A stretch of DNA of 64,000 nucleotides, taken from an uncultured Gammaproteobacteria bacterium (GTDB lineage: Bacteria; Patescibacteriota; Patescibacteriia; SG8-24). A model generated the notes under the pieces. That model did not search any database. It was not told the origin of the DNA and saw nothing but the letters and a program-made list of their open reading frames with translations. Shown piece after piece: positions 10,131 to 62,924 of this stretch (the stretch's first letter is position 1; each line of letters starts with the position of its first letter). The stretch spans positions 5,023 through 69,022 of the forward strand of contig CAYOXM010000003.1 of assembly GCA_964407925.1 (NCBI GenBank). Reading direction: 5' to 3'. Position numbers and translations under genes: made by a program.

Positions 10131-10268
10131 ACGCCTTCACCCTACCGCTTCGGCCCTTTAAAATGAAGCCGCGTCTCGCGCTGTTGCGCCATCGCGTCCG
10201 ATGCCGTAGGCTCACGGCGTCCCTGAGGGGAAAACGATCATTTTTCACGCGCCACGGAGGGTGCGACG

Positions 10269-10559
10269 ATGACGACGGAAAACAGGCGCGACCGCATCGC
10301 GCGGCTCAAACGCAAGTTCCTTCCCTTGAGCAAGATCCGCAGGCTCTTGGAGTTCGTGCGCTACGACCGCGCGAAGAACGGCCAGCTGCCGCATCCTTTC
10401 CCTGACGAATACGTGGAAGACTGCCGACAGGCGCTCTGGGAGCTGCTGCTCGAGGACTACGAAAACGACAACGACCGGCTGAGCCGCGTCCTCAGGCTCG
10501 CGGAGAAACGTCCGTCGGACCCGTTCATCAAGGCCGAGGCGCAGACGCCCGCGAAATGA
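10269..10559 (+). CDS. hypothetical protein
   Basis: GGAGGG lies 7 nt upstream of the ATG. Confidence 0.4.
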   Translation: MTTENRRDRIARLKRKFLPLSKIRRLLEFVRYDRAKNGQLPHPFPDEYVEDCRQALWELLLEDYENDNDRLSRVLRLAEKRPSDPFIKAEAQTPAK

Positions 10560-10662
10560 CCCGCAATCGCGGGTTTTTTACATGGCCGACGGTTGACTTC
10601 CGGTCCGAAAAATGCTAGCTTCGTGCGGCCGACGCTGACGCGTCGCGTGAGGAGAAAATGCC

Positions 10663-11844
10663 ATGACCGATCGTCGTTCTTTGAAACGCCCTACGTCGCG
10701 CCTTCCCCTTCGGCAATGCCTGAACGCGGACGCGCGGCTCGCCCTGCTCCGCGAGGACGGCCATGACGCCGACCTGCCGGGACCGCTCGCGGGATGCGAC
10801 GCCGCCGAACGCTTCATCGAAAACGCCGTCGGCGCGTTCCCCGTGCCGCTCGGAATTGCCACGAACTTCGTCGTGAACGGCGAGGAACGTCTCGTCGCCA
10901 TGGCGACCGAGGAACGCTCGGTCGTCGCTGCCGCGTCGTACGCCGCGAAGCTCTGCAGGGACACCGGCGGTTTCACGGTCGAGGTCGGACCGAACGTCGC
11001 CCGCGGGCAAATCCTGTTCGTGTCGTCGTCGTTCGGCGACGGCAGGGACGACGAAATCACGCTCCAGTGCCGCCGGATCGCCGAGGCGCTCGACCGCGAG
11101 GAACGGGCGCGTCGGCCGTCGCACTGCTCGCTCGCTGCCGACCCGTTCGCCCACTCGGTGGGCGCGCGCTGGCTCGACGGCGGCGTCGGCAGGCCGCACA
11201 TGCTGGTCGTCGACTTCCAGATGGACGTCGCCGACGCGATGGGCGCGAACGTCGTCACGCGCTTCGGCGAAAAGCTCGCGGCGCGCCTCAGGTCGCTGCT
11301 CGGCCTCCGCCGGACGGCGGTCATCTGCTCGAACGACCTCGCGTACCTGAACGGATCGGCCGTCAAGGCGACGGCGACGTGGCCGGTCGCGGCCGTCGGC
11401 GAACGCATCGCGGAAACGGTGGTGCGGCTGCAGCGGTGGGCGGAAAGCGACGGCTTCCGCGCCGTGACGCACAACAAGGGCGTCATGAACGGGGTCAGCG
11501 CCGTCGCGCTCGCCACGGGACAGGACGTCCGCGCCATCGAGGCGGCGGCGCACGCGGCCGCGGCGCACGAGGCGATGCCCTACGCGCAAAGCAAACCGCT
11601 CACGAAGTACGCGCTCGTCGGCAACGGCCTCGTCGGGACGCTCGCGCTCCGCGTGCCGCTCGGCACGGTGGGCGGCGCGACCGCGCACCCGATGGCAGCA
11701 TGGTGCCGACGGCTCATGGGCATCGAAAACGCGCGCGACCTCGCCGCGACCATCGCGGCCGCAGGCCTCGCGCAAAACTTCGCGGCGCTGCGCACGCTCG
11801 CCGACGAAGGCATTCCCGAGGCCCACGAACGCCTCAAACGGTGA
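10663..11844 (+). CDS. hydroxymethylglutaryl-CoA reductase, class II-type catalytic domain
   Basis: ENAVGAFPVPLGIATNFVVNGEERLVAMATEE, DAMGANVVT and THNKGVMNGVSAVALATGQDVRA match the class II HMGR signatures. GAGGAG lies upstream of the ATG. Confidence 0.75.
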   Translation: MTDRRSLKRPTSRLPLRQCLNADARLALLREDGHDADLPGPLAGCDAAERFIENAVGAFPVPLGIATNFVVNGEERLVAMATEERSVVAAASYAAKLCRDTGGFTVEVGPNVARGQILFVSSSFGDGRDDEITLQCRRIAEALDREERARRPSHCSLAADPFAHSVGARWLDGGVGRPHMLVVDFQMDVADAMGANVVTRFGEKLAARLRSLLGLRRTAVICSNDLAYLNGSAVKATATWPVAAVGERIAETVVRLQRWAESDGFRAVTHNKGVMNGVSAVALATGQDVRAIEAAAHAAAAHEAMPYAQSKPLTKYALVGNGLVGTLALRVPLGTVGGATAHPMAAWCRRLMGIENARDLAATIAAAGLAQNFAALRTLADEGIPEAHERLKR

Positions 11845-11924
11845 ACGGCCCCGCTTCTCGCGGGGTTTTCTTTTTGCGGCGGTTACGGCAGGATGCTTTC
11901 GCCGCTCGACGGCACGGAGGAACG

Positions 11925-12470
11925 ATGACGACCGACACCGAGACGATCACGCGCCCTTTTCGCACCATCGGCTTCGTCGCCGCGCTCGCAGCCGCGGCCG
12001 CGGCAGGAGTGACCGCCGGCTGGCTGCTCAAACCCGACCGCGCGAGGACCGAAACCGTCGCCCCGACGCGCGACGGTTCGCCCGGGGCGATTGCCGAACG
12101 CAACGCCGTCTGGCGCGTCTTGAACGGCAAGGACGCCGACGTGCCCGACGGTCCGGCCAAATCGCTCGGCTTCGCGCTCAAGGCCGCGCTCGACAAGGAT
12201 TCGCCGGTGCCGCTCCGCGACCGCGCGATGGGCGCGCTCATGAACAAGAGCGTGCTCTACTTCACCCCGGACGAAATCGACGAGGTAATGGGCGTGATGG
12301 TCGAAGGCGCCCCCGATGACCGCGCCGACGTCCTCCGCCGCATCCTCGCCGCCGACGACCGCGCGTGCGCTTTCGTCCGCGGCATCCTCGCCGACAAGCG
12401 GCGCATCGCGCTGTTTGCGGCCGGAAAACAAATTCCGCTCGAGACGCTTCCCGACGGCACGACGCCCTGA
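11925..12470 (+). CDS. membrane-anchored hypothetical protein
   Basis: GGAGG precedes the ATG at 11925, which is in frame with track ORF 10794..12470. There is one N-terminal TM segment. Confidence 0.45.
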   Translation: MTTDTETITRPFRTIGFVAALAAAAAAGVTAGWLLKPDRARTETVAPTRDGSPGAIAERNAVWRVLNGKDADVPDGPAKSLGFALKAALDKDSPVPLRDRAMGALMNKSVLYFTPDEIDEVMGVMVEGAPDDRADVLRRILAADDRACAFVRGILADKRRIALFAAGKQIPLETLPDGTTP

Positions 12471-12471
12471 C

Positions 12472-12502
12472 CTCGCCGCCCCTTCCGGGCGGTTTTTTTA
12501 TG
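12472..12502 (+). terminator. rho-independent terminator GCCGCCCC-TTCC-GGGCGGT followed by T7
   Basis: Read directly from the sequence. Confidence 0.6.
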
Positions 12503-12534
12503 CAAAAACATCCGCTTTCGGCGGATGTTCCTGA

Positions 12535-12554
12535 TGGTCGGGGCGACAGGGATT
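12535..12554 (-). repeat. exact 20-bp direct duplicate of the tRNA-Pro 3' end (TGGTCGGGGCGACAGGGATT)
   Basis: Identical to 12731..12750. A rearranged inverted copy, CCCCGACCCAATCCCTGTCGC, lies at 12671..12691. Confidence 0.7.
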
Positions 12555-12730
12555 TCACTGCTCGCCTCCGCCTCCTCGCACTGGGCTGCGGGGCGGGCTG
12601 CGCTCGCGGGAACCTTCGGGTTCCCGCGGACCCTCCTCGAAATGCGGAAACCTCCCGGTTTCCGCCCCTTCCCCGACCCAATCCCTGTCGCAACAAAAAA
12701 AGTTCCCCACCATCGGTGAGAAACTTTTTT

Positions 12731-46512: not shown

Positions 46513-47346
46513 ATGAAAATCAGGAAAGTCAGCGGCGAAAGCGTCGAGTTCCGTCCCGCGAAAGTCCGCGAGACGCTCAAGCGCATCGGAGCGAAGCCGG
46601 AGACGGTCGATCACGTCATCGCGAACGTCACCAGGGCCATCACCGAAGGGATGACGACCCGCGACGTGTTCGCCATCGTGCGGCGCGAGCTCAAGAAGGA
46701 GGACCGATGCCTCGCCCACCGGTACAACCTGCGCAAGGGACTGCTGAAGCTCGGTCCCGCGGGATTCAAGTTCGAAAAATACGTCGCGGCGATACTGCAG
46801 GCCTACGAATACGAGACGTCGCTGCCGCAGGACGAGCTCGCCGGCCTGTGCGTCCGCCACGAGGTCGACGTGATCGCGAAATCGCCGAGCCGCGTGATCA
46901 TGATCGAAGCGAAATTCAGGAACCGCTTCGACGACACCGTCACGCTCAAGGACGCGATGGCGACATGGGCGCGACTCATCGACCTGCGCGAAGGGTCGAA
47001 GGCGGGCAAGAAGACGCCCTACTTCGACGAGGCGTGGATCGTCACGAACGGCCGGTTTTCCGACCGCGCCCAGCAGTTCGGCGTCTGCAAGGGCATGCAG
47101 CTGATCGGCTGGAGCACGGAAGAGGCGTCGCTCGCCCGCATGGTCGACCATGCGGCGCTCTACCCCATCACGGTGATCGACGACGTGCGCCAGTGGGAGC
47201 TCGACGGCCTCGAAAAGAAGGGGTACGTCCTGTGCCGCGAAATCGCGGAGAAAAAACCGGACGCGCTCGCGAAGCAGACCGGCATGGCGCCGGACCGCGC
47301 GGCGAAAATCGTCGCCGACTGCAAGGAAATCGTGAACATCAGTTGA
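46513..47346 (+). CDS. ATP-cone domain fused to a PD-(D/E)xK (restriction-endonuclease-like, Mrr_cat-type) domain protein
   Basis: N-terminus MKIRKVSGESVEFRPAKVRETLKRIG... is ATP-cone-like. The core HEVDVIAKSPSRVIMIEAKF fits the D...E.K pattern. It starts 6 nt after znuB. Confidence 0.55.
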   Translation: MKIRKVSGESVEFRPAKVRETLKRIGAKPETVDHVIANVTRAITEGMTTRDVFAIVRRELKKEDRCLAHRYNLRKGLLKLGPAGFKFEKYVAAILQAYEYETSLPQDELAGLCVRHEVDVIAKSPSRVIMIEAKFRNRFDDTVTLKDAMATWARLIDLREGSKAGKKTPYFDEAWIVTNGRFSDRAQQFGVCKGMQLIGWSTEEASLARMVDHAALYPITVIDDVRQWELDGLEKKGYVLCREIAEKKPDALAKQTGMAPDRAAKIVADCKEIVNIS

Positions 47347-47410: not shown

Positions 47411-49876
47411 TTACTGCGCCTTTTCGCCCTGCCCCTTCATGCGCGACATGAAGCGCCAGCCGAAACCGAGCGCGACGAGCACGAGGAACGCCGTTCCGTA
47501 CAGGTAGTACCGCGCCCAGCTCGAGATCGCCGCGTCGGGCCGGACGTCGACGTCGGGCCTCAGGAAGTCCTCTTCTGACGTCGCGGCGACGGCTCCCTTC
47601 ACGAAGAACGCGAGCGGTTCGCTCTTCTTCGTGATCTTGCCGGTATCGTCCGTGACCGCGACATAGACCTCGTGCCTGCCGTCGACGACGCTGTCGGCGA
47701 GGTCGTACGCGAAGTTGCCGTTGCCGTCGGTCGTCGTCGTGAGCACCATCGGCACGTAGCTGTAGACGTACAGCAGGACCGTGGTATCCGGGGTCGCCTT
47801 GCCCTTGAGGACGTTGCTCGGCTTCGGGGACGAATCCGCCTTATTGGCGACATCTTTGTTGTCGTCATTGACTTGGCGATACCCCACGGGCGCAGGGCTG
47901 TTCGCGTCCTGACCGTCGCCATAGCAATACCCGTCACGGCAGAAGGGGTATTCGGCCGGACAATCCTTTTCAGACCGACACCGGATGATCTCGCGGTCGG
48001 TCGCGACCGGACCGGACGCGAGCGTCAAGCCGAACGATGCGTCAATTTCGCCCGCCCCGCGCGGCTGGCCGATGGCGTTGCCGAGGATGAAGGCCCTGTC
48101 TACGGACGCGAGCGAATCGAGCATGGCGGCGAACTGCGGCTGCGTCGGCTTGTCGCCCTTTTCAAAGAAGGCCTTGAGCGCGTCCCGGACCTGTTCGCCG
48201 TCGGGCGTCCCGTCGCCGTCGGTATCGGCCTTGTTCGGGTCCGTGCCGAGCCGTTTCTCGACGTCGTCTGGCAGCCCGTCCTTGTCGGCATCGAACACGA
48301 TGACTCCGGGCGCGGTCTCCTGCCCCTCCTCCTTCGAGGACGGCCACCACTTGACCTCGTCTTTCTTCTCGACACGAACCGCGACGAGAAGCGGCGCGGC
48401 GTCGCCGAGTTCCGCGAACGCGTCGCCGACCTTCTTGGTCGTGATGATCTCATCGACCTTCTTCTTGTCTTCGGCGGGAAGGTAACCGAACGTCGCGCGC
48501 GCCTTCACCGCGTCGCACGCTTCGGGCGTCAGTCCCTCGCAGCCGGGGAAGACGCCTCCTGCCTTGTCGCTCAGGTATTTCTCGCACGCCTCTTTCGTCG
48601 TGATGCCGGCGCGCGTGCAGGCATCGTCGGCATATTTCGCCTCGAGCCAAGAGGCGCAGCGCTCGGGAAGGATGCCCGCCGCAGCGCACTCGGCATTAAG
48701 CGCGCTCGCGGGAACCGCAACCGAGCCCATGAGCCCGAATCCGCCGTTGACGCCTTCCGTATCCTTCTCGAAATCCGCGGCAGCCGCCGGCGGGGCAGGC
48801 GGTGACGTGCCGTCAGTGTCGTCATCCGTGTCCTCCGCGACCCCCGCGAGCTTCTCGGCCGGTTCGCGAGAATGCTGGAGTTCCTGGGCGTCCGCCAAGA
48901 GATCGGGCGGAGGAACGCACTCCTCCAGCTGGGCCGGCGCGGGCGTCTGGACCGTCGGGCAATCGTCGACGAGCGTGCATTTCCGTTCCCGCATGCCGCC
49001 CCGACCGCACTCGCCCCATTCGGCGCACGTCCATTTGTCGGCAGTGCACGCGACGCACGTCCGCGTCACCGCGGGCTTGGCCGTCGTGACCCCGGCGCAG
49101 TCGCTTTTCAGCGTGCACGTCCGCGACTGGGAGCCTCCGCGGCACTCGCCCCAATCCACGCATGACCACAAGTCCTCCTTGCATGCCGTCTGCGGCGTGC
49201 TGCACGAGCGGGTCTCGGGCGGCCTGGGATCGTCGAAACCCGGACAATCGACGGTGAGCGTGCAGGCGCGCGCCTGCTTGCCCTCGACGGAACAGGCGCC
49301 CCACTCGCCGCAGCTCCAGGTGTCCTTGTCGCATGCCGGAACGCACGCCCGCGATTCGGAGGGTTTGGGCGTTTCGACGCCGGCGCAATCGGACCGCATC
49401 GTGCACGTACGTGACTGCGCGTAGTTGCCTGCCGCATCCTTCAGACAAATTGCCCAGTCGCCGCACGCCCAGTCGTCCGCGGTGCAGGCCGCGGCCTTGG
49501 TCGTGAACTGCCGGACGTCGGACTGCGTCGTGAGCCCGCTGGCGGTTGAGCGGACCTGATAAAAATAGGTGGTTCCCGGCTCAAGGCCCCACAACGTCAT
49601 GGCATGGCTGATCTCGGTGGTCTCGGTCTCCTCGATGGGGACGATTTTCTTGAATTCCTGGCCGAGCGACGCGGTCTTGCCGAAATTGACGACCGACGTG
49701 CTCTCGACGTTCGTCTGCCACCTGACGACGGCCGACGTGTCCGTCGTCTCCGCCTCGGCAACCGTCGGGCCGGAAACGATCTGGGGCGCGACCTGCGCGA
49801 ACGCCGAAAACGCCGTCAGCCCGACGACTGCGGCGAGCGCGGCGACGATGCGCTTCGTGATGCGGAACGAGGTCAT
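47411..49876 (-). CDS. large secreted/cell-surface protein: FN3/PAP-N-like domain, 4 tandem Cys-rich W-x-C-G-x-W-G-x-C repeats, TSP3-like Ca-binding repeats, C-terminal TM anchor
   Basis: Signal peptide. GTTYFYQV. Four repeats of about 48 aa each. DKDGLPDD...DTDGDGTPDGEQ. A C-terminal hydrophobic helix followed by basic residues. Confidence 0.6.
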   Translation of the reverse strand: MTSFRITKRIVAALAAVVGLTAFSAFAQVAPQIVSGPTVAEAETTDTSAVVRWQTNVESTSVVNFGKTASLGQEFKKIVPIEETETTEISHAMTLWGLEPGTTYFYQVRSTASGLTTQSDVRQFTTKAAACTADDWACGDWAICLKDAAGNYAQSRTCTMRSDCAGVETPKPSESRACVPACDKDTWSCGEWGACSVEGKQARACTLTVDCPGFDDPRPPETRSCSTPQTACKEDLWSCVDWGECRGGSQSRTCTLKSDCAGVTTAKPAVTRTCVACTADKWTCAEWGECGRGGMRERKCTLVDDCPTVQTPAPAQLEECVPPPDLLADAQELQHSREPAEKLAGVAEDTDDDTDGTSPPAPPAAAADFEKDTEGVNGGFGLMGSVAVPASALNAECAAAGILPERCASWLEAKYADDACTRAGITTKEACEKYLSDKAGGVFPGCEGLTPEACDAVKARATFGYLPAEDKKKVDEIITTKKVGDAFAELGDAAPLLVAVRVEKKDEVKWWPSSKEEGQETAPGVIVFDADKDGLPDDVEKRLGTDPNKADTDGDGTPDGEQVRDALKAFFEKGDKPTQPQFAAMLDSLASVDRAFILGNAIGQPRGAGEIDASFGLTLASGPVATDREIIRCRSEKDCPAEYPFCRDGYCYGDGQDANSPAPVGYRQVNDDNKDVANKADSSPKPSNVLKGKATPDTTVLLYVYSYVPMVLTTTTDGNGNFAYDLADSVVDGRHEVYVAVTDDTGKITKKSEPLAFFVKGAVAATSEEDFLRPDVDVRPDAAISSWARYYLYGTAFLVLVALGFGWRFMSRMKGQGEKAQ
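48916..49495 (-). repeat. four tandem DNA repeats of about 145 bp each, encoding the Cys-rich modules of the surface protein
   Basis: Protein-level repeats of about 48 aa with conserved Cys spacing. Confidence 0.5.
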
Positions 49877-52212: not shown

Positions 52213-52833
52213 CTAAAGGGAGTGTCCCATCCGTTTCTTTTTCACGTCGAGATATTTCCGATTGTACCGGTTCGGCCGCGTCCGAACGGGGATGACGCCG
52301 GTAACGGCGACACCCTCGGCCTCGAGCCCCTTCTTCTTGAGCGGGTTGTTGGTCATGAGGCGGATCGACGCGACGCCGAGCTTCCGCAACACGGCGGCGG
52401 CCGGACAATATTCGCGCGAATCCTGAGGAAGGCCGAGCTTGGCGTTCGCCTCGACGGTATCGAGGCCGTGATCCTGCAGGTGGTAGGCGCGGATCTTGTT
52501 GAAGATGCCGATGCCGCGCCCCTCCTGACGGAGATAGATGATAGCGCCCTTCTTCCGCTTGGCGACGTAACGCATGGCGAGTTTCAGCTGGCCGTCGCAG
52601 TCGCACTTGAGCGAATCGAACACCTCGCTCGTCATGCATTCGGATTGGACGCGCACCGGCAGGTCACGCGCGCCCGCGACGTCGCCCATCACGAAAACGA
52701 GATGGGTGTTTCCGGCCTTGCGGTCGGCGGCGTCATAAAACGCGATCGCCTTCCACATGCCGTGCGGCGTCGGGATGTTCGCCGGCTCCGTGCAGACGAG
52801 CCGTGCTGACTTGCGGTGACGTTTCACGGGCAT
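52213..52833 (-). CDS. ribA: GTP cyclohydrolase II
   Basis: RVQSECMTSEVFDSLKCDCDGQL (Zn-binding Cys triad) and the RibA catalytic motifs. The start was trimmed to MPVKRH. Confidence 0.8.
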   Translation of the reverse strand: MPVKRHRKSARLVCTEPANIPTPHGMWKAIAFYDAADRKAGNTHLVFVMGDVAGARDLPVRVQSECMTSEVFDSLKCDCDGQLKLAMRYVAKRKKGAIIYLRQEGRGIGIFNKIRAYHLQDHGLDTVEANAKLGLPQDSREYCPAAAVLRKLGVASIRLMTNNPLKKKGLEAEGVAVTGVIPVRTRPNRYNRKYLDVKKKRMGHSL

Positions 52834-52945
52834 GAGCGCATCGTACCACCGCCGCCCGCGACGGAGAAGCACGGTTGACACTGAGCGAAAAACATGGCAA
52901 GCTGTCCGGTCGTTCCTTGTCTGCAACCGCAACCGCGGAGGGGTC

Positions 52946-53440
52946 ATGAGCGCCTTCATCGTCATTCTCGGCACGATCGCCTATCTTCAGGCGGGGTACT
53001 TCCTGGGACGCATCGGCTGGTCCGTCTGGAAACGGCGGGACAACCTGTCGTTCCGCTCGTACCTGTTCTTCCCCTCGAGCCATCTCCGCCGACGCGTCGG
53101 AGCGGGAACGATGTCGCTCTTCCAAGGGGTCAACCCTGAGGAAGGCGCGTATCGGGCGGCGATGCTGCTCTTCTGGCCCGTCGCTGCCGTTCTCAGCCTC
53201 GCCGTCGTCGCCGTGACGCTGCCGGGCTGGATGGCGTCGCGGCCCGAACGGATCCGCGCGGCGAACGTGCGGAAGCTCCACCTCCTCGAGACGCAGAACC
53301 GCGCGCTCGACGCGTACATCCGCCGCCTCGAAACGGGTGACGTGACCACGCACGCCGCGCCGGTCACCCGGATCGTCGAAATCAGCGACGACGAGGGCGA
53401 GGAGGAAGAAACGGCTGCCGCCCGGCGCACCGCCGGCTGA
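52946..53440 (+). CDS. membrane hypothetical protein
   Basis: GGAGGGG precedes the ATG at 52946. Two TM segments and an acidic C-terminus. Confidence 0.45.
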   Translation: MSAFIVILGTIAYLQAGYFLGRIGWSVWKRRDNLSFRSYLFFPSSHLRRRVGAGTMSLFQGVNPEEGAYRAAMLLFWPVAAVLSLAVVAVTLPGWMASRPERIRAANVRKLHLLETQNRALDAYIRRLETGDVTTHAAPVTRIVEISDDEGEEEETAAARRTAG

Positions 53441-54366: not shown

Positions 54367-54936
54367 TCAGTTCGCGGGAACGAGCGACGTGACCATGTCG
54401 GTAAGCTCCTGCCATGAAGCGACGCGCACGGCGACGCCTTCGGCATCCACGTGGCTGTTGTAGCCCCACGAAAACAACGCGCGATGCGGCACGACGCCGA
54501 CGAGCGGCTCGAGCTTGTCGATGTCGTCATCGACGTAGAAATCCAGTCCTGCCGCCGCATCCGCCTTGCTCGCGCCGTGGCCCACGCCGGTGAAATCGAT
54601 GGCGAGCCCGCGGCGGTCCGCCCATGCCCGCGCGACCTCGAGCGTTTCGCCATCGCGCGACGTGATGACGCGCACCTCGTGGCCGGCGCCGCGCAAACGC
54701 GCGATCCCCTCGAGGACGCCGGGAACCGGCTCCATCAGCTCGCCGTATTCGTGCGTGCCGTAAATCACCTGCTGAAGATGCCGGTACTGGTCATGCGTCA
54801 GGATGCCACCGCCGACGACGAGTTCCTTCTTGAACCGCTCCGGCGGGATGTCCACGCCGAAGAGCCGCTTGGCTGCCTTGCATTTGAGGTCGCCGCAGTC
54901 GGAGATGACGCCGTCGAAATCGAGGCCGATGCGCAT
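54367..54936 (-). CDS. HAD-superfamily hydrolase, NT5C (5'(3')-deoxyribonucleotidase)-like
   Basis: N-terminal DFDGVI catalytic motif, plus HAD motifs downstream. Confidence 0.5.
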   Translation of the reverse strand: MRIGLDFDGVISDCGDLKCKAAKRLFGVDIPPERFKKELVVGGGILTHDQYRHLQQVIYGTHEYGELMEPVPGVLEGIARLRGAGHEVRVITSRDGETLEVARAWADRRGLAIDFTGVGHGASKADAAAGLDFYVDDDIDKLEPLVGVVPHRALFSWGYNSHVDAEGVAVRVASWQELTDMVTSLVPAN

Positions 54937-54991
54937 AGTCGGATCATGCCGGAATATGGGCGTACGTTAGCAGTCGCGGACCGTCCAGTCA

Positions 54992-55007
54992 ACGCGCGTT
55001 GACACTA
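54992..55007. promoter_or_regulatory. 16-bp perfect palindrome GTCAACGCGCGTTGAC between divergent genes (it carries TTGAC in both orientations)
   Basis: Read directly from the sequence. TTGACA, a 17-nt spacer and TACCAT are upstream of the 55065 gene. Confidence 0.35.
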
Positions 55008-55064
55008 CTGCGCCCCGTGCCTACCATTGCCGCAGGCATGCCCGATTCATGAAAGGAGGCCGGC

Positions 55065-55604
55065 ATGACGACGCGACTACTCATCGGCGGCCCGAGCAAC
55101 TCGGGCAAGAGCACCTTCGTCCTTTCCCTCGTGGAATACCTGCGGAGCGCGGGACTCACCGCGAACGCGCACGAGCTCGACGTCTGGTCGAACTCGTACG
55201 TCGCCTTCCGCGGCGAAATCCCGTTCGAGGGCAGGCCGAAACGGCAGGGCCTCGACTGGGACTGGCAGACGCCGCTCAAGGAGCGCATCGACGCGTTCGC
55301 GACGGACCCGTCCGACTTCGTTTTCGGCGACCTGCCCGGCAAACTCGACGAGGCGATTACGCACGTCTGCGCGAACGCACCCGCGAACGCCGCGCTCGTC
55401 ATCAGCCGCAAGCTCGATGCCATCACGGAATGGGAGTCGTTCTTCGAAGAGAGCGGCGTGCCTGTCCTGCAGTCGTTCCTGACCTTCCAGGACCGCCCGC
55501 CGGTGATTCTCGTCGGGATGAACCGCAACCTGGAGCCGGGCCACCCGCACGTAAAGGCGTTCGGCGACATGCTCCTCTTCGGGAGAAGGCTCGCGAGGCG
55601 TTAA
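55065..55604 (+). CDS. P-loop NTPase, hypothetical (AAA_28-like)
   Basis: AAAGGAGG precedes the ATG. LLIGGPSNSGKST is a Walker A motif. Confidence 0.5.
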   Translation: MTTRLLIGGPSNSGKSTFVLSLVEYLRSAGLTANAHELDVWSNSYVAFRGEIPFEGRPKRQGLDWDWQTPLKERIDAFATDPSDFVFGDLPGKLDEAITHVCANAPANAALVISRKLDAITEWESFFEESGVPVLQSFLTFQDRPPVILVGMNRNLEPGHPHVKAFGDMLLFGRRLARR

Positions 55605-55743: not shown

Positions 55744-56859
55744 ATGGCGAAAGACAAGTCGAAAAAAAAGACGCCCGTCGAGGACGAGCCCGAGTACGAG
55801 CGCCGCTGGGTGGTCAGGTCGATCGACCCCGACATCCGCCGCGCACCTTCGCAGCTCATTGAGCAGGGGTACTTCGACCGGACGCGCGACCTGCGCATCC
55901 GCATCATCGACGGCAAGATGTCGATCCTCGCCTGCAAGCTGGGCCGAGGCAGGGCACGGACGGAACGGCCGAAACGCACGCCGCTGTCGGTCGGGCGGTT
56001 CCTGCTCGAGTCGACGCCGTACGTGGTACGCAAACGCCGCCACGTCCGGGACGGCTGGGAAATCGATTTCTTCGAGGGACCGCTCGCGGGCCTCGTCATC
56101 GCCGAAATCGAAAAAAGGTCGCTCGCCGCGCTCGAAAAGGTGACGCTGCCGCCGTGGATTCACGACGCGGTCGAGGTGACGGAGACGCTGTCGAACCGCC
56201 TGCTCGCGCGCGTCGCCTACGACCTCGCCGGCGAGGAAGGCCCCGACCGCCCCATCCGCGAATTCCTGCCGAAGCGCGTCCCGAGCGTCGTGCTCACGGG
56301 CGGACCCTGCTCCGGCAAAAGCACGCTGATGGCCCTCTTCCGTCAGGAATACGGCGGCATCCTGCATTGCGTTCCGGAAACCGCGACCATCGTCATCGAC
56401 CAGGTCGGCGCGAAGCCGCCCGTCAACGACCCCGAGGGAATGCGGACGTTCCAGCGCGTCATCTACCGCGTGCAGAACAGCTTCGAGAAGGTCGCACACC
56501 GGCAGGCGTTCAAGGACGGCAAGAAGGCGCTCCTGCTCGACCGCGGGACCGCCGACGCCGCTGCCTACATGACAAAGGGCGTCGCCGATCTCGAACGCGT
56601 CTGCGAGACGAGGATGGACGACGAGTACGCGCGCTATGACGGCGTCATCTGCCTCGACGTTCCGCCGAAGGACGTCTACGACGCCAACAAGGCGAACAAC
56701 CCGGCGCGATCGGAAACGCACGCGCAGGCGGCGAAGCTCGGCGACCGCATCGTGAGCGCATGGGGAGACCATCCCCGCTTCCGCTTCATCCGCGGCAGCT
56801 GGGAAGAGAAGGTCGCCGGCGCCCGCGCGGCGCTCGAGGAAATCGTCGGCATCCGCTGA
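55744..56859 (+). CDS. CYTH-like (triphosphate tunnel) domain fused to a P-loop ATPase (AAA_28-like)
   Basis: N-terminus EPEYERRWVV is ExExK-like. Walker A motif VVLTGGPCSGKSTL. GGAGG Shine-Dalgarno. Confidence 0.5.
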   Translation: MAKDKSKKKTPVEDEPEYERRWVVRSIDPDIRRAPSQLIEQGYFDRTRDLRIRIIDGKMSILACKLGRGRARTERPKRTPLSVGRFLLESTPYVVRKRRHVRDGWEIDFFEGPLAGLVIAEIEKRSLAALEKVTLPPWIHDAVEVTETLSNRLLARVAYDLAGEEGPDRPIREFLPKRVPSVVLTGGPCSGKSTLMALFRQEYGGILHCVPETATIVIDQVGAKPPVNDPEGMRTFQRVIYRVQNSFEKVAHRQAFKDGKKALLLDRGTADAAAYMTKGVADLERVCETRMDDEYARYDGVICLDVPPKDVYDANKANNPARSETHAQAAKLGDRIVSAWGDHPRFRFIRGSWEEKVAGARAALEEIVGIR

Positions 56860-56962: not shown

Positions 56963-57562
56963 ATGCACGAATTGCATAACGACCTTGACCGGTTGCTCGG
57001 ACGGAAGTACCGCAAACGCGCCGAGCGCGACACGGCGATGCTGCCGCTCCTGCCGCTCTACGCGGCGCTGACGGACGGCGAATTCCGCCTGGTTTCCGCG
57101 TCAGCAGTCGACGCGCATGACGCCGGCCTGGCGATCGCGCTCGCCACGGGAATCCGCGACGCCGCGGTCGAGCTCGTCACGGCAGTCGCCGCAGAAGACG
57201 CGCTCGCCGCCGGTCTCGCCACCTCGCGTCTCGGCGACACGCTCCGCGACCGGCTCTGGACCGGACTGCAGCCGGTCCTCGGCGAGAGCGTCGCCGAGGA
57301 CCTCGACCGGCACGTCGACCTCTTCGACGGCCTGCTCGAAGAAGCGGTCGCGGAACGCATCCCCGACGCCTTCAGGGGCAGAAAGTACGTCGACGTGCTC
57401 TACGGCATCCGCATGGCCGTCCGCGTCTACCTCGGACGCTCACTCGCTGCCGACGACTCGTCGGCACGACGCCTCGTCCCGCTGCTCCGCCTGATCACCG
57501 GCACCCTGCCGCTCGGCGAGACGACGTCGCCACCCTGCCGCTGGATCCTGCTCGCGGCCTGA
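56963..57562 (+). CDS. hypothetical protein
   Basis: AGGAGG precedes the ATG. No motif recognised. Confidence 0.4.
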   Translation: MHELHNDLDRLLGRKYRKRAERDTAMLPLLPLYAALTDGEFRLVSASAVDAHDAGLAIALATGIRDAAVELVTAVAAEDALAAGLATSRLGDTLRDRLWTGLQPVLGESVAEDLDRHVDLFDGLLEEAVAERIPDAFRGRKYVDVLYGIRMAVRVYLGRSLAADDSSARRLVPLLRLITGTLPLGETTSPPCRWILLAA

Positions 57563-57564
57563 AT

Positions 57565-57597
57565 GCCGCCCCCTTGCTCGGGGGCGGTTTTTTTAAA
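57565..57597 (+). terminator. GCCGCCCCC-TTGCTC-GGGGGCGGT followed by T8
   Basis: Read directly from the sequence. Confidence 0.6.
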
Positions 57598-57658
57598 AAA
57601 AGCCCGCCACGACGAACTTTACTAAAAACGGCGTTCCCGTCCGACGGCAAAAAAAATC

Positions 57659-57685
57659 CGTCCCGCGAGCGTGCGGGACGGCGTA
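57659..57685 (-). terminator. CCGTCCCGC-ACGCTC-GCGGGACGG followed by T8 on the minus strand, 3' of the Ubl gene
   Basis: Read directly from the sequence. Confidence 0.5.
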
Positions 57686-57700
57686 GCATGCGGTTCCGTC

Positions 57701-57961
57701 TCAGGAACCTTGCGGTCGCTCGGCGATGCCGATCTTGTCGCCGGCCTTGAGGCTGACGCCGTAGTCGGTCGCCGGCGTGCCGTTGACGGTGATGTCCTTA
57801 CGGTCCGGCGTGACGCCGCAGGCCTGGAGCGCGCCCTCGAGGGTCGCGCACTGGGCGAGGTCGAGCGTCTTCTCGGTCGGAGACCCCTGGGTGGGAGTGA
57901 CGGTGACGGTCACCGTGCCGGCAGCCTTCTTGGTCCTCGAACTGCGATTCTTCTTGCTCAT
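57701..57961 (-). CDS. small ubiquitin-like beta-grasp protein (MoaD/ThiS-like) with a Lys/Arg-rich N-terminal tail, ending QGS
   Basis: GGAGGA lies 7 nt upstream of the ATG. TVTVTVTP...ITVNG...LKAGDKIGIAE has a beta-grasp-like pattern. The gene starts 19 nt after the E1 gene stop. Confidence 0.45.
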   Translation of the reverse strand: MSKKNRSSRTKKAAGTVTVTVTPTQGSPTEKTLDLAQCATLEGALQACGVTPDRKDITVNGTPATDYGVSLKAGDKIGIAERPQGS

Positions 57962-57980
57962 GGAACGTTCCTCCGTGGCA

Positions 57981-58637
57981 CTAGGCCGTTACCTGCTTGA
58001 GGTCGCGGACCAACTTCTTGTAGTGCCGCTCCTTTCTACCGTTCGACCACCAGTTCGTCAAGTTGGCGTTGACCGCGGCGGCGGCGACCGCGGCGACGTG
58101 GTAGATGCCGTGATAGCCGCACATCGGCTTCACGGCCTCGTCGTATCCGTAGCGGAGAAAGTACTCGTAGTACGCGATGTCGTCGGGGTCCGACGGGTTC
58201 ACCGCGAACACCGAGACGTACTCCGAGGCGATGCGCGTGTCGATCAGGATGTCGACGAGGCTGGCCTTCGCCGTCTCCCAGATCTTCTTGCGCGCCTCCA
58301 TCCGGTCGACGCAGGCGACGACGGCGCCGCGGAGCGGTTCGCCGGCGTACATCCGCGGGACTGGCGTAATCGTCACGCCCGCCTGCTCGGCGACGATGTC
58401 GGCGAGCGCGCGCACCTTCACGACCCCGAGGTCCTTCAGGCGGTAGGCGCTCACCGGGATGTTGTGGCTCTCGATGTCGTCGCCGTCCCAGACCGTGAGG
58501 TCCGTGACGCCGATCTTCGCGAGTGCCACCGCCACCTGGCTCCCGACGGAACCGGCGCCGATGAGCGTCACCGGCATGGCGTGGCTGGCCGTGAACAGCT
58601 CGTGCTGCTGGCCGTGGTTCATCGCCGTTCCGGTCAT
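57981..58637 (-). CDS. compact ThiF/MoeB/E1-like adenylyltransferase
   Basis: AAGGAGGAA Shine-Dalgarno. Motifs LIGAGSVGSQVAVALAKIGV (GxGxxGS), DGDDIESHNI and VVACVDRMEARKKI (CxD..xxxR). A translationally coupled ATGA overlap with the upstream gene. Confidence 0.7.
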   Translation of the reverse strand: MTGTAMNHGQQHELFTASHAMPVTLIGAGSVGSQVAVALAKIGVTDLTVWDGDDIESHNIPVSAYRLKDLGVVKVRALADIVAEQAGVTITPVPRMYAGEPLRGAVVACVDRMEARKKIWETAKASLVDILIDTRIASEYVSVFAVNPSDPDDIAYYEYFLRYGYDEAVKPMCGYHGIYHVAAVAAAAVNANLTNWWSNGRKERHYKKLVRDLKQVTA

Positions 58638-60175
58638 TGCATTCCTCCTTCTTTTTCCTTGACGGTGACGTCGACGGCGCGCCGGGACAGCGCGGCCGCT
58701 TCCTCGCCCGGATTCCGCTGCGAACGCAACGTATCGGGCGGCTTGTCGGGGTCGTGCGGTTCCGCCGCCGCGACCGTCGCGGGCGCGGGCGTCCCGACGG
58801 CGGCCTCCGGCCACTCCTCGATCTTCACGTTGGCGAGGATCGGCGTGTAGCCCTTGGCAAGCCAACGGATCACGAGCGTGACGGTGTCGAAGTAGCGGTG
58901 ATACGCCGCGTTCTTCGCGATCGCCTCGACCGCGTTGCCGAAGCAGGCATTGCCGTCGAGATGAATGTGGGGATGCGGCACGCGCCGCGGATGCTTCGTC
59001 TCCTCGCACCAGACCGAGACGCCGCCGACCGACGAGATGCGGATGACGTACCGCCCGAGGGCGTACCGTTTTCCGCCGTACTCCGCGTGGATGAGCTTCG
59101 TTTCCACGTGGACCCCGTTCTCGACGAGCGACACGCGCCGCACCTCGGGAATCCGTCGGATGGCGGCGAAGTCGCGCGGCGCGCGCTCGAGAGCCTCCTT
59201 CACGAACGGCGCGTCGTTGAAAGACGACAGCTGCGCCTCGAGCTCCCTTCTGAAGCGGAGCGCGTCGGCGAGCTGCTTTTGCAGGGTCTGGATCGTCCCG
59301 TCGTTCTTGACGATGGTCTTCTTGAGACCTCCGCCGACCGACGTGATCCACTCCTCGCTCGCCTTGACGAAAGCGTCGCGCGTCGCCGCGGGCGCGGCGT
59401 CGACGCCCTCCTTCAGCTGGCGATACCGTTCGTTCCACGAGAGCGCGAGCGTCCGCTGGAAAATCAGCGGGCTCGACGACTTGTGGAACGAGGACACCAT
59501 CGGCAGGAGGAAGTAGAAGTTCGCGCCGAGCACCTGCGCGACCGCGGTCTCCTTGTCCTTGAGGACCGTTCCCCGCCCCTTCGACGCCGTGCGCCGGAGG
59601 ACCGCGAGGTTGTCCTGATTGACCGAGACTCCGAACGCGACGGCGACGTACTCCGTGCCGAAGTCGCCCGGCGGACCGCCGTTCGAGAAGACGTGGATGG
59701 TCTTCCCGTCGTCGGCGTACGGGTCGCGGACGTGTCCGCCCCCATGGTGGAAGACGATCTCCGCGCCGACGAGGCGCGAGAGGAGCATCAGGGAAGGACG
59801 GTACGCGTTGCAGGCGGTTTCCCGCCGCACCATGTCGTCCTGGTCCTTGTTCTCCCTGTCCTCGTCCGCGAACGTGACCGTCCCCTTCCTGGGAAGGAGC
59901 ATCGGCACGCCGGCGAGATCGCCGATGGCGCAGAAGGACCATTCGAAGTCCTCCTCCTTTCGGCCGACGGCCTGGTAGAACGCCGCGAGCTCCGCGTCGC
60001 TCAGGCCGACCGTGCCGCGTCCGTTGACGCGGATGACGTCGATGACGAAGTCGCCGGCGACCGCCTTCTCGCGGCCGATCCGGAGCTTCTTGCGCCGAAG
60101 CGCCTTCCTCGCCGCCGACTCGACGGCGTACGCGGGAACGGCAAACGGGAGCGATGCCGATTTTTCGGGTTCCAT
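58634..60175 (-). CDS. 513-aa protein with unknown N-terminal region and a C-terminal UBC/E2-like domain
   Basis: GGAGG lies 5 nt upstream of the ATG at 60175. The C-terminal ...RYVIRISSVGGVSVWCEETKHPRRVPHPHIHLDGNACFGNAV... matches the E2 HPN-x(4-6)-G-x-[IA]-C-[LF] core. Confidence 0.5.
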   Translation of the reverse strand: MEPEKSASLPFAVPAYAVESAARKALRRKKLRIGREKAVAGDFVIDVIRVNGRGTVGLSDAELAAFYQAVGRKEEDFEWSFCAIGDLAGVPMLLPRKGTVTFADEDRENKDQDDMVRRETACNAYRPSLMLLSRLVGAEIVFHHGGGHVRDPYADDGKTIHVFSNGGPPGDFGTEYVAVAFGVSVNQDNLAVLRRTASKGRGTVLKDKETAVAQVLGANFYFLLPMVSSFHKSSSPLIFQRTLALSWNERYRQLKEGVDAAPAATRDAFVKASEEWITSVGGGLKKTIVKNDGTIQTLQKQLADALRFRRELEAQLSSFNDAPFVKEALERAPRDFAAIRRIPEVRRVSLVENGVHVETKLIHAEYGGKRYALGRYVIRISSVGGVSVWCEETKHPRRVPHPHIHLDGNACFGNAVEAIAKNAAYHRYFDTVTLVIRWLAKGYTPILANVKIEEWPEAAVGTPAPATVAAAEPHDPDKPPDTLRSQRNPGEEAAALSRRAVDVTVKEKEGGMQ

Positions 60176-60238
60176 CGTGCCTCCATGGTCGGTGGTGAAC
60201 GTCCGATCCCCCTTCGCCGAAGCTTGAGGGGACGGGCA

Positions 60239-60267
60239 AAAATAGCACGCGTCACGAACGCGGTCAA
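60239..60267 (-). promoter_or_regulatory. sigma70-like promoter of the E2-E1-Ubl operon: TTGACC -35, 17 nt spacer, TATTTT -10 (minus-strand sense)
   Basis: Read directly from the sequence. About 55 nt of 5'UTR follow, containing a small hairpin. Confidence 0.45.
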
Positions 60268-60281
60268 CTGCGTGCATGACG

Positions 60282-60310
60282 AAAAAACCGGCCCCGAAGG
60301 GGGCCGGCCG
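60282..60310 (-). terminator. CCGGCCCC-CTTC-GGGGCCGG followed by T6 on the minus strand, 3' of the EEP gene
   Basis: Read directly from the sequence. Confidence 0.5.
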
Positions 60311-60315
60311 CGGCG

Positions 60316-61524
60316 TCAGCGGTACGAAAGCCGCACGCGGATGCCATAGTGGTCGGACAGGTACGTGGTCGCGGAATTGCCCGCGGCGTCCGTGACGACG
60401 ATCGTCCGGTCGAAGAGGCGCTGCGTTTCGCACGCGACGACGCGGGGACCGGTCGGCGGGTTGCGCAGCAGCACGTGATCGATGAACTGGTTCATGCGGT
60501 TGTCGCGGAGAGCATTCTCCGCGCAGACGCTGCACATCGGCGGTTCGACGAACGCCGCGGGGCTTTCGAAGCCGAGACGGTTCGCGAGGAGCCAGACGTC
60601 GCGCGACATCGCGACGATATCGGGACCGTGCTCCTGGCCGAAGTTCATGTCGCCGAGAAAAACGACGGGACGTCCCGCGGAACGGAGCGCGAGGCGTTCC
60701 GACGCGAGCGCGATCTGTGCCGCCTGCTCCTCCTCCCAGGTCGCGTAGCCGGTATGCATCGGCGGGACGCGCTGGGGCGACGAGAGGTGAGTGCATGCGA
60801 CTTCGACGGGAGGACGACCGGGCACGTCCATCGACGCGATGAGCACGGGACGGTTCGCGCCGCTCGAGGGCAGCGCGAGCGTCTCGCGGTCATGGAGCGG
60901 GAACCGCGACAGCAGGATGAGGCCGTTCTGCCCGCCGTAGACGCGCGACGCGTGCCTCCCCTCGGTGCATGACGCCATGATGGCGTCGAGCGGCTTGCCG
61001 ACGCCGGCGGCAAGGCAGTTGAGGCACTGCTTATGGCGGAGGTACAGCCCGAGCAGGTCGGAACCGCATTCCGCCATGGCGCAGAGCGTCGCGTCCTCGC
61101 CGGCGTCCGCGCACTTCTGGCGCGAACATTCGGCGAGCGATCCGAGATCGTCCGCGTCGCAAGCGTCGGCCGGATCCTCCCCCGTCCCGGACGTATCCGA
61201 GAAGAAGGCATGCGGCAGGCGCGGCGCGAGCGCGTCGACGATGCGGCGCTTGTCCTCGGCGAGCCACGCTTCCTCGATGCAGACGACGTCGGCGTCGAGA
61301 TCGCGAAGCGCCTCAGCGACGGGCACGGCGCGCGGCGTGGCGAGGCGGTTCATGCCGGGGGCGAGCGCGACGTTCCACGTGACGGCGTTGAACGACGGGC
61401 TGGTCTCGCAGGTTCCCTCGGGCGGGGGCGGGGGCGGCGGAATCGGCGGCGGGGGCGGCGGCCGCATGTCGCTCGTGACGAGCAGTGCCGCGGCGAGCGC
61501 CAGCGCTACGATTTTCTTGTCCAT
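60316..61524 (-). CDS. endonuclease/exonuclease/phosphatase (EEP) family secreted protein with an N-terminal poly-proline tract
   Basis: Signal peptide, then PPPPPPIPPPPPPPEG. EEP motifs VVCIEEAW and SDHYG. It is the C-terminal part of track ORF 60316..62874. Confidence 0.65.
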   Translation of the reverse strand: MDKKIVALALAAALLVTSDMRPPPPPPIPPPPPPPEGTCETSPSFNAVTWNVALAPGMNRLATPRAVPVAEALRDLDADVVCIEEAWLAEDKRRIVDALAPRLPHAFFSDTSGTGEDPADACDADDLGSLAECSRQKCADAGEDATLCAMAECGSDLLGLYLRHKQCLNCLAAGVGKPLDAIMASCTEGRHASRVYGGQNGLILLSRFPLHDRETLALPSSGANRPVLIASMDVPGRPPVEVACTHLSSPQRVPPMHTGYATWEEEQAAQIALASERLALRSAGRPVVFLGDMNFGQEHGPDIVAMSRDVWLLANRLGFESPAAFVEPPMCSVCAENALRDNRMNQFIDHVLLRNPPTGPRVVACETQRLFDRTIVVTDAAGNSATTYLSDHYGIRVRLSYR

Positions 61525-61616: not shown

Positions 61617-62822
61617 TCAAGGTACTTTGAGCCGGAATTTCACTCGGGTCCCGTAGTGGTCGGAAAGGTCGGTGAGTACCGTGCCGCCCGAGTACCCGAT
61701 GACGTTCACCGGGGCGTCGAACATCCGGTCCGCGCAGGCGGGAACGAGGTCCGTTCCGCCGACGGGGTCGCGCACGAGCACGTGGTCGATGAGGTTGCCC
61801 GCGCCGCCGGGCTTTCCGCGCAACGTGTTCTCGCCGCAGATGGTGCACCACGGCGACGGAATCGACGCCGCGGGACTGACGTATCCGTACTTCATCACGT
61901 CGCCCCAGACGGCGGGAGCCTCGGCATCGAGCGTGCCGACCTTCGGGCCCGTGTTGACGTCGCCGATGAGGAGCGTGGGACGCGTCCCCGCGCGCAGCCG
62001 CAGCCGATCGTCGATCATCTTCAGCTGAGCGCGCTGTTCCTCGATCCACGTCGCGTAGCCGGAGTGCGCGGGAGGAATCTGCGCGTCCGACGACAGGTGG
62101 GTGCAGGCCAGCTCGACCGGTTCGGTCGCGCCGGGCACCGCAATGCGCGCGAGGAGCGCCACGCGGTTCGCGCCGCTCGCCGGAAGATTGATCACTTCGC
62201 GGTCGATGAGCGGCCAGCGCGACGCCAGGATGACGCCGTTCCTGCCGCCCTGGATGCGCGACGCGCCGCCGTGCGTGCAGACGTCGGCGATGGCGAGCGA
62301 GGACTTCCCCGCCATGGCGGCGAGGCAGTTCACGCAGTTCTTGCCGTTCATGTAGACGGCGGCGAGCTCGAACGCGCACTTGTCCATCGCGCAGAGCGTC
62401 AGGCTCTCCGACGGCACGCCCTTGCACTGCGTGTCCGTGCAGGACAGCAGGAAGTCGACTTGGCTGCCGGAACAGGTATCCGTCCCGGTCTCGCCGAGCC
62501 CGGCGGTCTCCGTGACGAACACGTTCTGCGGGGGCAGGCCGAGCGCGGCGACGATCGCGTCCTGGTCGCGCTTGACCCATGCTTCCTGCAGACAGAGGAC
62601 GTCGTACTGCGTGCGTCCGAGCGCGGCCGCGACTTGCGGCGCACGCGGCGACGAGTACTCGATCATCCCCGGGCCGAGCCCGGTATTGAACGTGACCGCC
62701 GTGAGCGCGGCGTCGGTTCGGTCGCACGTCTGGCCGACCGTACCTTCGGGAACGAGCGGCTTCGGACCGTCGGCGCAAGAGGCGCCGATGAACAGGGTCG
62801 AAATGACGATGACAGCCATCGT
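61617..62822 (-). CDS. endonuclease/exonuclease/phosphatase (EEP) family secreted lipoprotein, paralog of 60316..61524
   Basis: Lipobox FIGASC. Motifs VLCLQEAW and SDHYG. Internal Met of track ORF 61617..62918. Confidence 0.65.
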   Translation of the reverse strand, partial: TMAVIVISTLFIGASCADGPKPLVPEGTVGQTCDRTDAALTAVTFNTGLGPGMIEYSSPRAPQVAAALGRTQYDVLCLQEAWVKRDQDAIVAALGLPPQNVFVTETAGLGETGTDTCSGSQVDFLLSCTDTQCKGVPSESLTLCAMDKCAFELAAVYMNGKNCVNCLAAMAGKSSLAIADVCTHGGASRIQGGRNGVILASRWPLIDREVINLPASGANRVALLARIAVPGATEPVELACTHLSSDAQIPPAHSGYATWIEEQRAQLKMIDDRLRLRAGTRPTLLIGDVNTGPKVGTLDAEAPAVWGDVMKYGYVSPAASIPSPWCTICGENTLRGKPGGAGNLIDHVLVRDPVGGTDLVPACADRMFDAPVNVIGYSGGTVLTDLSDHYGTRVKFRLKVP

Positions 62823-62924
62823 CCACAGGAAGGAGTGCTTCACGCCAACCTCCGTCGCATGAGACAGGGAACAAAAAAGGACTTTAACCGATGGTAGCCG
62901 ACGCCTGCGCAAAAGCAAACCTGC

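Follow-up and report, generated by a model that had tools for sequence, protein, structure and literature searches.

The CBASS protein Cap2 and the Bil and Bub systems have recently changed views on the origin of ubiquitin signalling and on its use by bacteria. The described bacterial families also include classes 6a-6e of Iyer et al. 2006 (PMC1779556). In Bil, a JAB deubiquitinase accompanies two enzymes: a multidomain E1 that has a zinc site and a mobile Cys domain, and a CEHH-type E2 in which a conserved His follows the Cys (PMC10557695). Bub (class 6E/DUF6527) forms Tyr/Ser oxyesters, has a fused ubiquitin-like protein (Ubl)-E2 with JAB-E1 or E2-E1, and always carries a DUF6527 serine protease (PMC11601596). 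The characterized bacterial E1/E2 systems are all tied to immunity, as shown for CBASS Cap2 and Bil and proposed for Bub (PMC10557695, PMC11601596). Here we describe three adjacent genes, g1, g2 and g3 (the trio), in a 64,000 nt stretch of DNA from an uncultured Gammaproteobacteria bacterium (GTDB lineage Patescibacteriota, SG8-24; contig CAYOXM010000003.1, positions 5,023 to 69,022), the whole of which is referred to as the window. They code for an E2-like protein, a minimal E1 and a Ubl, and probably specify a self-contained cascade of previously undescribed architecture, in which the Ubl would pass from the E1 to a Cys of the E2 and on to protein targets.

58634..60175, minus strand: g1, 513 aa, E2-like protein; a GGAGG ribosome-binding site precedes the ATG
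57981..58637, minus strand: g2, 218 aa, minimal E1; the ATG overlaps the g1 stop codon (ATGA)
57701..57961, minus strand: g3, 86 aa, Ubl; it has its own GGAGG and starts 19 nt past the g2 stop codon

The three genes recur together. Loci were found using a degenerate DNA pattern for H-P-x4-H-P-H-x7-C-x-G-N, and chance matches (about 40%) were removed with a hidden Markov model (HMM) of the g1 family. Among species-representative genomes there were 51 pattern matches, 32 of which were family members by the HMM. An E1 gene adjoins the g1 homologue in 31 of these 32 loci (phmmer, 1e-36 to 1e-72), which are all of those with downstream room (L047 has none), and the E1 is followed by a Ubl open reading frame (ORF) in 29/29 loci with further room. 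Metagenomes supplied 38 more family loci, with the E1 present in 37/37 that had room and the Ubl wherever the contig continues. The order E2-like, E1, Ubl is the same in all of the 70 independent loci with enough downstream sequence. When all flanking ORFs were clustered, no other family occurred in more than five of the approximately 70 loci, and there is no fourth conserved gene; in particular, no JAB/deubiquitinase (DUB), effector, regulator, protease or CD-NTase is recurrent in these flanks. The homologues are annotated at NCBI as hypothetical proteins.

The g1 protein belongs to a large family that is absent from curated libraries. It has no match in Pfam (E<=1), PADLOC, NCBIfam or PHROGs, ten distant relatives have no Pfam family at E<=0.1, and neither g1 nor these relatives match the curated E2 profiles (Pfam UQ_con, Prok-E2_A to Prok-E2_E). 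A word-indexed search retrieved just 10 relatives, whereas an exhaustive profile search gave 2235 cluster representatives at E<=1e-3, 853 at E<=1e-10 and 185 at E<=1e-30. Almost every one of the 150 top-ranking relatives is full-length (430-550 aa), and the N-terminal extension is therefore a feature of the family. The initial annotation, made from the sequence alone, had described an N-terminal part of about 330 aa that matched nothing recognised; this holds for the curated libraries, but the region is family-wide rather than peculiar to the window copy. The parts of the protein, as seen in an AlphaFold2 (AF2) model, are as follows.

59390..60175, minus strand: g1 residues 1-262, the family-wide N-terminal region, its fold unsettled (AF2, conservation)
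59156..59389, minus strand: g1 residues 263-340, a helical hairpin of two long helices, 266-321 and 323-340 (AF2)
58805..59155, minus strand: g1 residues 341-457, the UBC/E2-like core, with beta-meander, HPH loop, Cys411, two helices and W-P end (AF2, profile alignments)
58934..58975, minus strand: codons of the proposed active-site loop, His401 to Asn414, with the Cys411 codon at 58943..58945

The model (predicted local distance difference test, pLDDT, 77) has an alpha/beta part at 10-260, the long helices at 266-340, a five-strand meander at 345-393, a loop and two helices at 413-441, and a disordered tail at 458-513. Within the N-terminal region the secondary structure is beta-alpha-beta-beta-alpha-beta (10-95), a helix (112-136), a beta-rich stretch (139-222) and a further helix (235-256). 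Residues G137, P152, P168, G170, G200, G202 and Q214 are conserved there, but in the family alignment none of the Cys, His, Ser or acidic residues of this region is conserved.

Taking the profile matches together with the gene context, the C-terminal 120 or so structured residues are well supported as a remote UBC/E2-type domain. When a profile of the C-terminal domain was compared to all PDB sequences, 11 of the 12 matches were E2 enzymes, and the nine that ranked highest were UBE2L3-type chains (best E=0.04). The alignment extends from E2 helix alpha-1, which falls on g1 residues ~328-341 (the last turns of the long helices), to the active site, where H-P-H-I-x3-G-x-x-C lies on HPNIDEKGQVC of UBE2L3 and Cys411 on the catalytic Cys. 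The loop itself reads HPHIHLDGNACFGN (g1 residues 401-414). An hhalign comparison of the domain with four human E2s, the sequences of which were entered by hand, gave 85.9% probability (E=5e-6) over 101 columns in the same register as UBE2L3. In 72 diverse family sequences, G202, H401, H403, C411, G413 and Y443 are invariant, and H395, P402 (71/72), W438, L439, G442, W455 and P456 nearly so. The E2 HPN...Cys motif, with its Cys 7-8 residues on, is thus present in a variant form, the Asn being replaced by the invariant His403. The UBC topology (helix alpha-1, meander, active-site loop, helices) can be followed in the AF2 secondary structure over residues 323-448, in the model only, and a Foldseek search of the PDB with the full g1 model gave no significant match. 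These results uphold the original proposal of a C-terminal UBC fold with an HPN-type motif. A stretch of only 17 residues (g1 395-411, window 58943..58993) contains the three histidines H395, H401 and H403 as well as the invariant Cys411, and a metal site formed by these four residues would be an alternative to a purely catalytic role.

By profile comparison, g2 is confirmed as a minimal ThiF/E1-type adenylation domain, as the initial annotation had it. It matches PF00899 (Pfam ThiF) over residues 21-204 with 49 bits (cutoff 28.1), and carries the motifs GAGSVGS, DGDDIESHN and CVDRMEAR. A profile built from 17 g2 orthologues and searched against the PDB matched UBA5 (3e-10, the top match), ThiF (1e-9), TcdA, MccB, PaaA, Cap2, UBA3, UBA6 and BubCD. 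UBA5 is the smallest eukaryotic E1 and has its Cys inside the adenylation domain; its CVDNFEAR aligns with C109-V-D111-x-M-x-x-R116 of g2, so that the Mg/ATP-binding Asp motif is kept. The PADLOC Cap2 'E1-E2' models match only g2 residues ~20-90 (the Rossmann part). Scores against the NCBIfam ThiF, MoeB, PRTRC and SAMP-E1 models are all far under their cutoffs, the best being to ThiF models; the PRTRC ThiF model TIGR03736, for example, gives 35.3 bits (cutoff 144.75), and none of the PRTRC neighbours (ParB, proteins A-F) is found beside g2. Residues invariant in the g2 family are G27, G29, G32, D51, D53, H58, N59, K74, C109, D111, R116, D133, T134, R135, C173, G174 and H176, among which Cys173 stands out.

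58119..58121, minus strand: codon of the invariant g2 Cys173, in a C-G-x-H-G motif (family alignment)

Cys173 occurs in 32/32 sequences covering that column and lies 62 residues past the Mg-binding Asp, a spacing which we take to be like that of the crossover-loop Cys of ThiF and UBA5. From this invariance and spacing we infer that Cys173 may be the catalytic Cys of a crossover loop. The g2 protein also matches the uncharacterised phage family phrog_15670 over its full length (E=1e-17), better than it matches Pfam ThiF; phages thus have minimal E1-like proteins of this kind as well.

The third protein, g3, was predicted from the outset to be a beta-grasp Ubl that does not end in GG, and modelling, structural likeness and the ends of its homologues all bear this out. 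The AF2 model (pLDDT 77) has the topology beta-beta-alpha-beta-beta, and the fold is structurally closest to ThiS, MoaD, TtuB and SAMP, although neither g3 nor its relatives match any family in Pfam, PADLOC, NCBIfam or PHROGs. A Lys/Arg-rich N-terminal tail, another early observation, is common among the homologues but not universal. A flexible tail follows the beta-grasp; a C-terminal Gly-Gly does not.

57704..57721, minus strand: g3 tail E81-R-P-Q-G-S86, the conserved C-terminal motif

Six residues (ERPQGS) follow the last g3 strand, and ThiS likewise has six after its own. Family members almost always end in [E/A]-R-(P/A/V)-x-G-S directly before the stop codon, and no residue of the protein is more conserved than the terminal Ser. 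It is present in 27/28 homologues derived from the trio loci (the remaining one ends in GG) and in 21/21 homologues from databases; a G-S end is found in 19/19 complete metagenome copies, which were themselves picked by their C-terminal motif. In a few cases Ser or Asp takes the place of the penultimate Gly, giving SS or DS ends. Trimming of the terminal Ser by a peptidase was considered and is unlikely, since no peptidase is linked to the cassette and trimmed SS and DS variants would not expose a Gly. For the same reasons, the terminal Ser of g3 is most likely the residue that would be activated.

The likeness of g3 to ThiS, MoaD, TtuB and SAMP also raises the question of sulfur transfer, in which the E1 would adenylate the small protein for conversion to a thiocarboxylate used in tRNA or cofactor thiolation, and the g1 Cys would act as a persulfide relay. 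An E1 of ThiF size, with ThiF models as its best NCBIfam matches, would fit such a system, as would housekeeping flanks and an occurrence in small genomes. However, those NCBIfam ThiF and MoeB scores are all well under cutoff, the known carriers end in Gly-Gly while the Ser of the G-S end of g3 is its most conserved residue, and in the approximately 70 loci neither a rhodanese or cysteine desulfurase nor a TtuA/ThiG/MoaE-type partner was found, and no other neighbour is conserved. Pfam scans of the window likewise found no sulfur-pathway, thiamin or Moco genes, in line with what had been noted at first. No known sulfur relay uses an obligatory partner with an E2 motif and a Cys at the E2 catalytic position, and the argument that an E2 partner favours protein conjugation over sulfur transfer is thereby supported. 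We consider a sulfur-carrier role improbable.

Still less probable, and to our minds quite remote, is a reaction like that of MccB or PaaA, in which the E1 would activate the small protein for non-protein ligation or C-terminal modification, and g1, instead of acting as a transferase, would provide a scaffold or an acceptor. MccB substrates end in Asn, and an invariant C-terminal residue other than Gly recalls them; MccB and PaaA are also among the PDB matches of the E1 profile. Those matches, however, cover only the Rossmann part, and the 218-aa E1 lacks the N-terminal peptide-clamp domain of both enzymes. The substrate would be a folded beta-grasp protein of about 80 aa and not a short peptide, no export or immunity genes are found in the loci, and the E2 motif with its invariant Cys would be left unexplained.

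We favour, then, a conjugation cascade, which could operate in the following way. The E1 encoded by g2, which like ThiF, MoeB and UBA5 is probably a homodimer, would bind g3 through the g3 tail, recognition being guided by the Arg at position -4 and the small-small C-terminus, and would adenylate the carboxylate of the terminal Ser86. The activated Ubl could then be handed as a thioester to Cys411 of g1, possibly via Cys173 of the E1. In g1, His401 would take the structural role of the HPN histidine of E2 enzymes, with the invariant His403 in place of the asparagine, and the Ubl would be discharged onto a nucleophile of the target. The N-terminal region and helical hairpin may serve as a built-in part for substrate recognition or oligomerisation, as in an E2/E3 hybrid. 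Since translation already gives the Ubl its final C-terminus, no maturation protease is required, and the trio encodes no dedicated deconjugating enzyme.

Several observations weigh against such a cascade. To our knowledge there is no precedent among Ubls for a C-terminal Ser as E1 substrate. The g2 family lacks the canonical Arg of the S-N-x-x-R-Q motif (it has S-H-N-I-P-M-S, with Met/Val in the UBA5 alignment) and the N-terminal R-x-x-R-Q Arg finger (it has L-N-x-S-Q-Q). Both CxxC zinc pairs are missing from it, C109 and C173 being the only conserved Cys residues. The C-terminal half of the E1 profile matches no solved E1, and for this reason the equivalence of Cys173 to the crossover-loop Cys of ThiF and UBA5 is tentative. 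Finally, no target, E3 or DUB is identifiable for the trio.

The same chemistry could also serve anti-phage defence in the manner of Bil, with the Ubl attached to a structural or replication protein of a phage and the variable N-terminal region of g1 acting as a sensor. The characterized bacterial E1/E2 systems, all of them reported or proposed to act in immunity, give this idea its appeal, and the E1 resembles the phage family phrog_15670. The spread across phyla is patchy: going by record titles, of the 32 genomic loci 19 are from Patescibacteria (Uhr-, Lloyd- and Kaiserbacteria, Paceibacterota and Saccharibacteria), six from uncultured 'Gammaproteobacteria' and seven unclassified. The N-terminal region of g1 also diverges much faster than the E1. 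Between the window and L001 (cassette at 9971..12578), from the single metagenome-assembled genome (MAG) that shares the window's gene order, identity is 30% for g1, 52% for the E1 and 42% for the Ubl, compared to 46-76% for the flanking genes. On the other hand, g1 and g3 have no PADLOC match, and the loci contain no DUB, effector or regulator. A Pfam and PADLOC scan of 87 flanking proteins from 30 loci found ribosomal protein S2, EF-Ts, Cpn60, TsaD, NadA, DNA polymerase III delta', peptidases and transporters. These flanks serve ribosomes, chaperones, tRNA modification and metabolism; no neighbour recurs among them, and defence genes are not enriched. Searches of viral contigs and of phage and plasmid records gave no copy of the trio, and a mobile-element or phage origin of the cassette was rejected on this ground; the base composition of the window copy is the same as that of its flanks, with no anomaly. 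Taken together, a role in defence appears unlikely, though less so than sulfur transfer.

A LexA-like repressor is the only flanking family that recurs, in five of the approximately 70 loci (L005, L010, L034, L065 and L099), and a DinB/ImuB-type polymerase gene is found near the cassette in at least three of these (L005, L034 and L065). This recurrence probably reflects synteny among related Patescibacteria.

More speculatively, the trio might serve ordinary physiology in Patescibacteria and a few other lineages as a minimal ubiquitin-type tagging system without a DUB, perhaps for proteostasis or regulation in organisms that lack Pup or a proteasome. It would combine a classical H-P-x...Cys E2 with chemistry dependent on the C-terminal Ser, for example a Ser-carboxyl thioester or ester unlike those of Gly-linked Ubls. 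We consider this reading unlikely, but if it were true, the modification would be new among proteins, and the bacterial E2s would form a lineage near the root of those of eukaryote type.

In the window, the trio occupies a single transcription unit on the minus strand (57658..60309), delimited by the following elements.

60286..60309, minus strand: terminator-like hairpin with a 10-pair stem (8 G-C pairs) and a T run; it ends the upstream EEP gene and forms the 5' boundary of the unit
60239..60267, minus strand: sigma-70-like promoter TTGACC-17-TG-TATTTT (consensus match only)
57658..57681, minus strand: intrinsic-terminator-like hairpin followed by T8, 20 nt past the g3 stop codon

The promoter-like site lies 64 nt upstream of the g1 ATG and is the only one found by a consensus scan of 57400..60500, where 0.2 would be expected. 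These ORF and consensus scans agree with the promoter and terminator, gene lengths, coordinates and motifs given by the initial annotation. Its suggestion that all three genes are translationally coupled applies to g1 and g2, which overlap at ATGA, but g2 and g3 are close without overlapping.

Genes near the cassette code for an aldehyde dehydrogenase family protein (Aldedh), two EEP proteins, a 199-aa ORF, an AAA_28 protein, a P-loop ORF, NT5C, an FA-hydroxylase, GTP cyclohydrolase II and a GNAT protein; farther away are MarC, a trypsin-like protease, a phosphatase, an Mrr-like protein, Znu and a CCA/polyA polymerase. Besides the trio, the whole window has no gene for an E1, a Ubl or an E2-like protein; a JAMM motif is likewise absent, and no CD-NTase or JAB was detected among the window genes scanned with Pfam. 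The neighbours had been described as EEP and P-loop/CYTH proteins, and Pfam confirms EEP twice and an AAA_28 domain but gives no CYTH match. As the gene order is reproduced only in the MAG mentioned above (L001/L002), we regard the neighbours as lineage synteny and not as functional partners. The EEP and P-loop genes are uninformative on function, since they travel with the cassette only in this one related genome, and EEP, AAA_28, NT5C, FA-hydroxylase and GTP cyclohydrolase II were rejected as parts of the system. The cassette proteins of the window are no closer to those of L001 than to the Uhrbacteria or Saccharibacteria copies, and such low identity within shared synteny could be due to fast evolution or to replacement in place.

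Directly upstream of the cassette are tandem, paralogous EEP (PF03372) genes, at 60316..61524 (minus strand) and 61617..62918 (minus strand). In the proximal protein, a poly-proline run and a Cys-rich insert come after a hydrophobic N-terminus, and L001 carries a single EEP copy (46-48% identity). On the other side, a 371-aa protein (55744..56859, plus strand) combines an N-terminal part of about 170 aa, without a Pfam match, with an AAA_28 (NadR-like kinase) domain that spans residues 182-356. Its gene is grouped with those for an NT5C-like nucleotidase (54367..54936) and GTP cyclohydrolase II (52213..52974), a nucleotide-metabolism grouping conserved in L001 only. Two ORFs are absent from the syntenic L001 region: a 199-aa ORF without a family match (56963..57562, plus strand) and a 179-aa Walker-A ORF (55065..55604, plus strand). 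The latter overlaps an antisense ORF (54989..55570) with an equally high third-position GC, so its coding strand is ambiguous. Farther off, an Mrr-like gene of the restriction-endonuclease fold (46513..47343, plus strand), also present in L001, adjoins a gene (47414..49876, minus strand) for an 821-aa protein, which starts with a purple-acid-phosphatase domain and also carries a Big_13 domain.

If it acts as we propose, the trio would add a further family to the bacterial ubiquitination-like systems, and with an E1, an E2, a Ubl and no protease it would be the simplest gene set so far. Patescibacteria have genomes of about 1 Mb and keep few dispensable genes; the distribution of the trio centres on this group, and its contexts resemble housekeeping regions rather than defence islands. 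The three proteins (513, 218 and 86 aa) are small enough for direct reconstitution, which makes the targets of tagging and the activation of Ser-terminated Ubls immediately testable.

Compared to the sulfur carriers and their activating enzymes (ThiS/MoaD/TtuB/SAMP with ThiF/MoeB/TtuC/UbaA), the trio has a Ubl of the same fold, alike in size and tail length, and an E1 of similar size. It differs in the G-S rather than G-G end, the obligatory E2-like partner, the lack of sulfur-transfer or cofactor genes, and NCBIfam scores that stay under cutoff. With eukaryotes, the likenesses are to UBA5, the leading PDB match of g2, and to UBC E2s such as UBE2L3, where the shared run extends from helix alpha-1 through the H-P-x-I-x3-G-x-x-C spacing. 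These likenesses are remote, with no UQ_con match, HPH in place of HPN, and a large N-terminal extension in g1; the helix that follows the Cys begins two residues further on than in eukaryotic E2s, and the g1 domain is therefore more compact.

Among bacterial systems, Bil (BilABCD, Iyer class 6C/CEHH), which is ISG15-like, is one of the closest. In both, the Ubl, the E2 and the E1 are encoded by separate genes of a single operon and an E3 is missing; Cys-based chemistry would be shared as well, and the Bil E2 is thought to choose its targets itself, as may be the case here. Bil, however, has a JAB protein and a multidomain E1, whereas the trio has no JAB and an E1 of 218 aa without CxxC pairs; the His of the Bil E2 follows the Cys, whereas g1 has a classical-type H-P-x before it and a 340-aa N-terminal extension; and the Ubl, unlike that of Bil, ends in Ser. 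Bub uses a catalytic Ser in its E2 and a Tyr in its E1, while the trio keeps an invariant Cys in both enzymes and has nothing fused, and no gene or Pfam match for the DUF6527 (PF20137) protease was found in the trio or the scanned flanks. In type II CBASS, Cap2 is an E2-E1 fusion that conjugates the CD-NTase and has an effector and the JAB protein Cap3 as its partners; the trio is unfused and has no CD-NTase, and the PADLOC likeness to Cap2 stops at the Rossmann part of g2, with none in g1. A literature search of incomplete coverage found no description of the family, which is absence of evidence only. Each of the described bacterial families has a JAB or DUF6527 protease, fusions, a multidomain E1, non-Cys catalysis or a CD-NTase, and the trio has none of these; the separate E1 and E2, missing JAB and GS terminus that first set it apart hold across approximately 70 loci. 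Its E2 motif is nearer to the classical HPN...Cys layout than those of the Bil or Bub E2s, and its Ubl ends in an invariant Ser, not Gly. The trio is, in our view, a bacterial ubiquitination-like module that is distinguished by its Ser-terminated Ubl, an N-extended H-P-x...Cys E2, a stripped-down E1, the lack of a protease, and a distribution centred on Patescibacteria.

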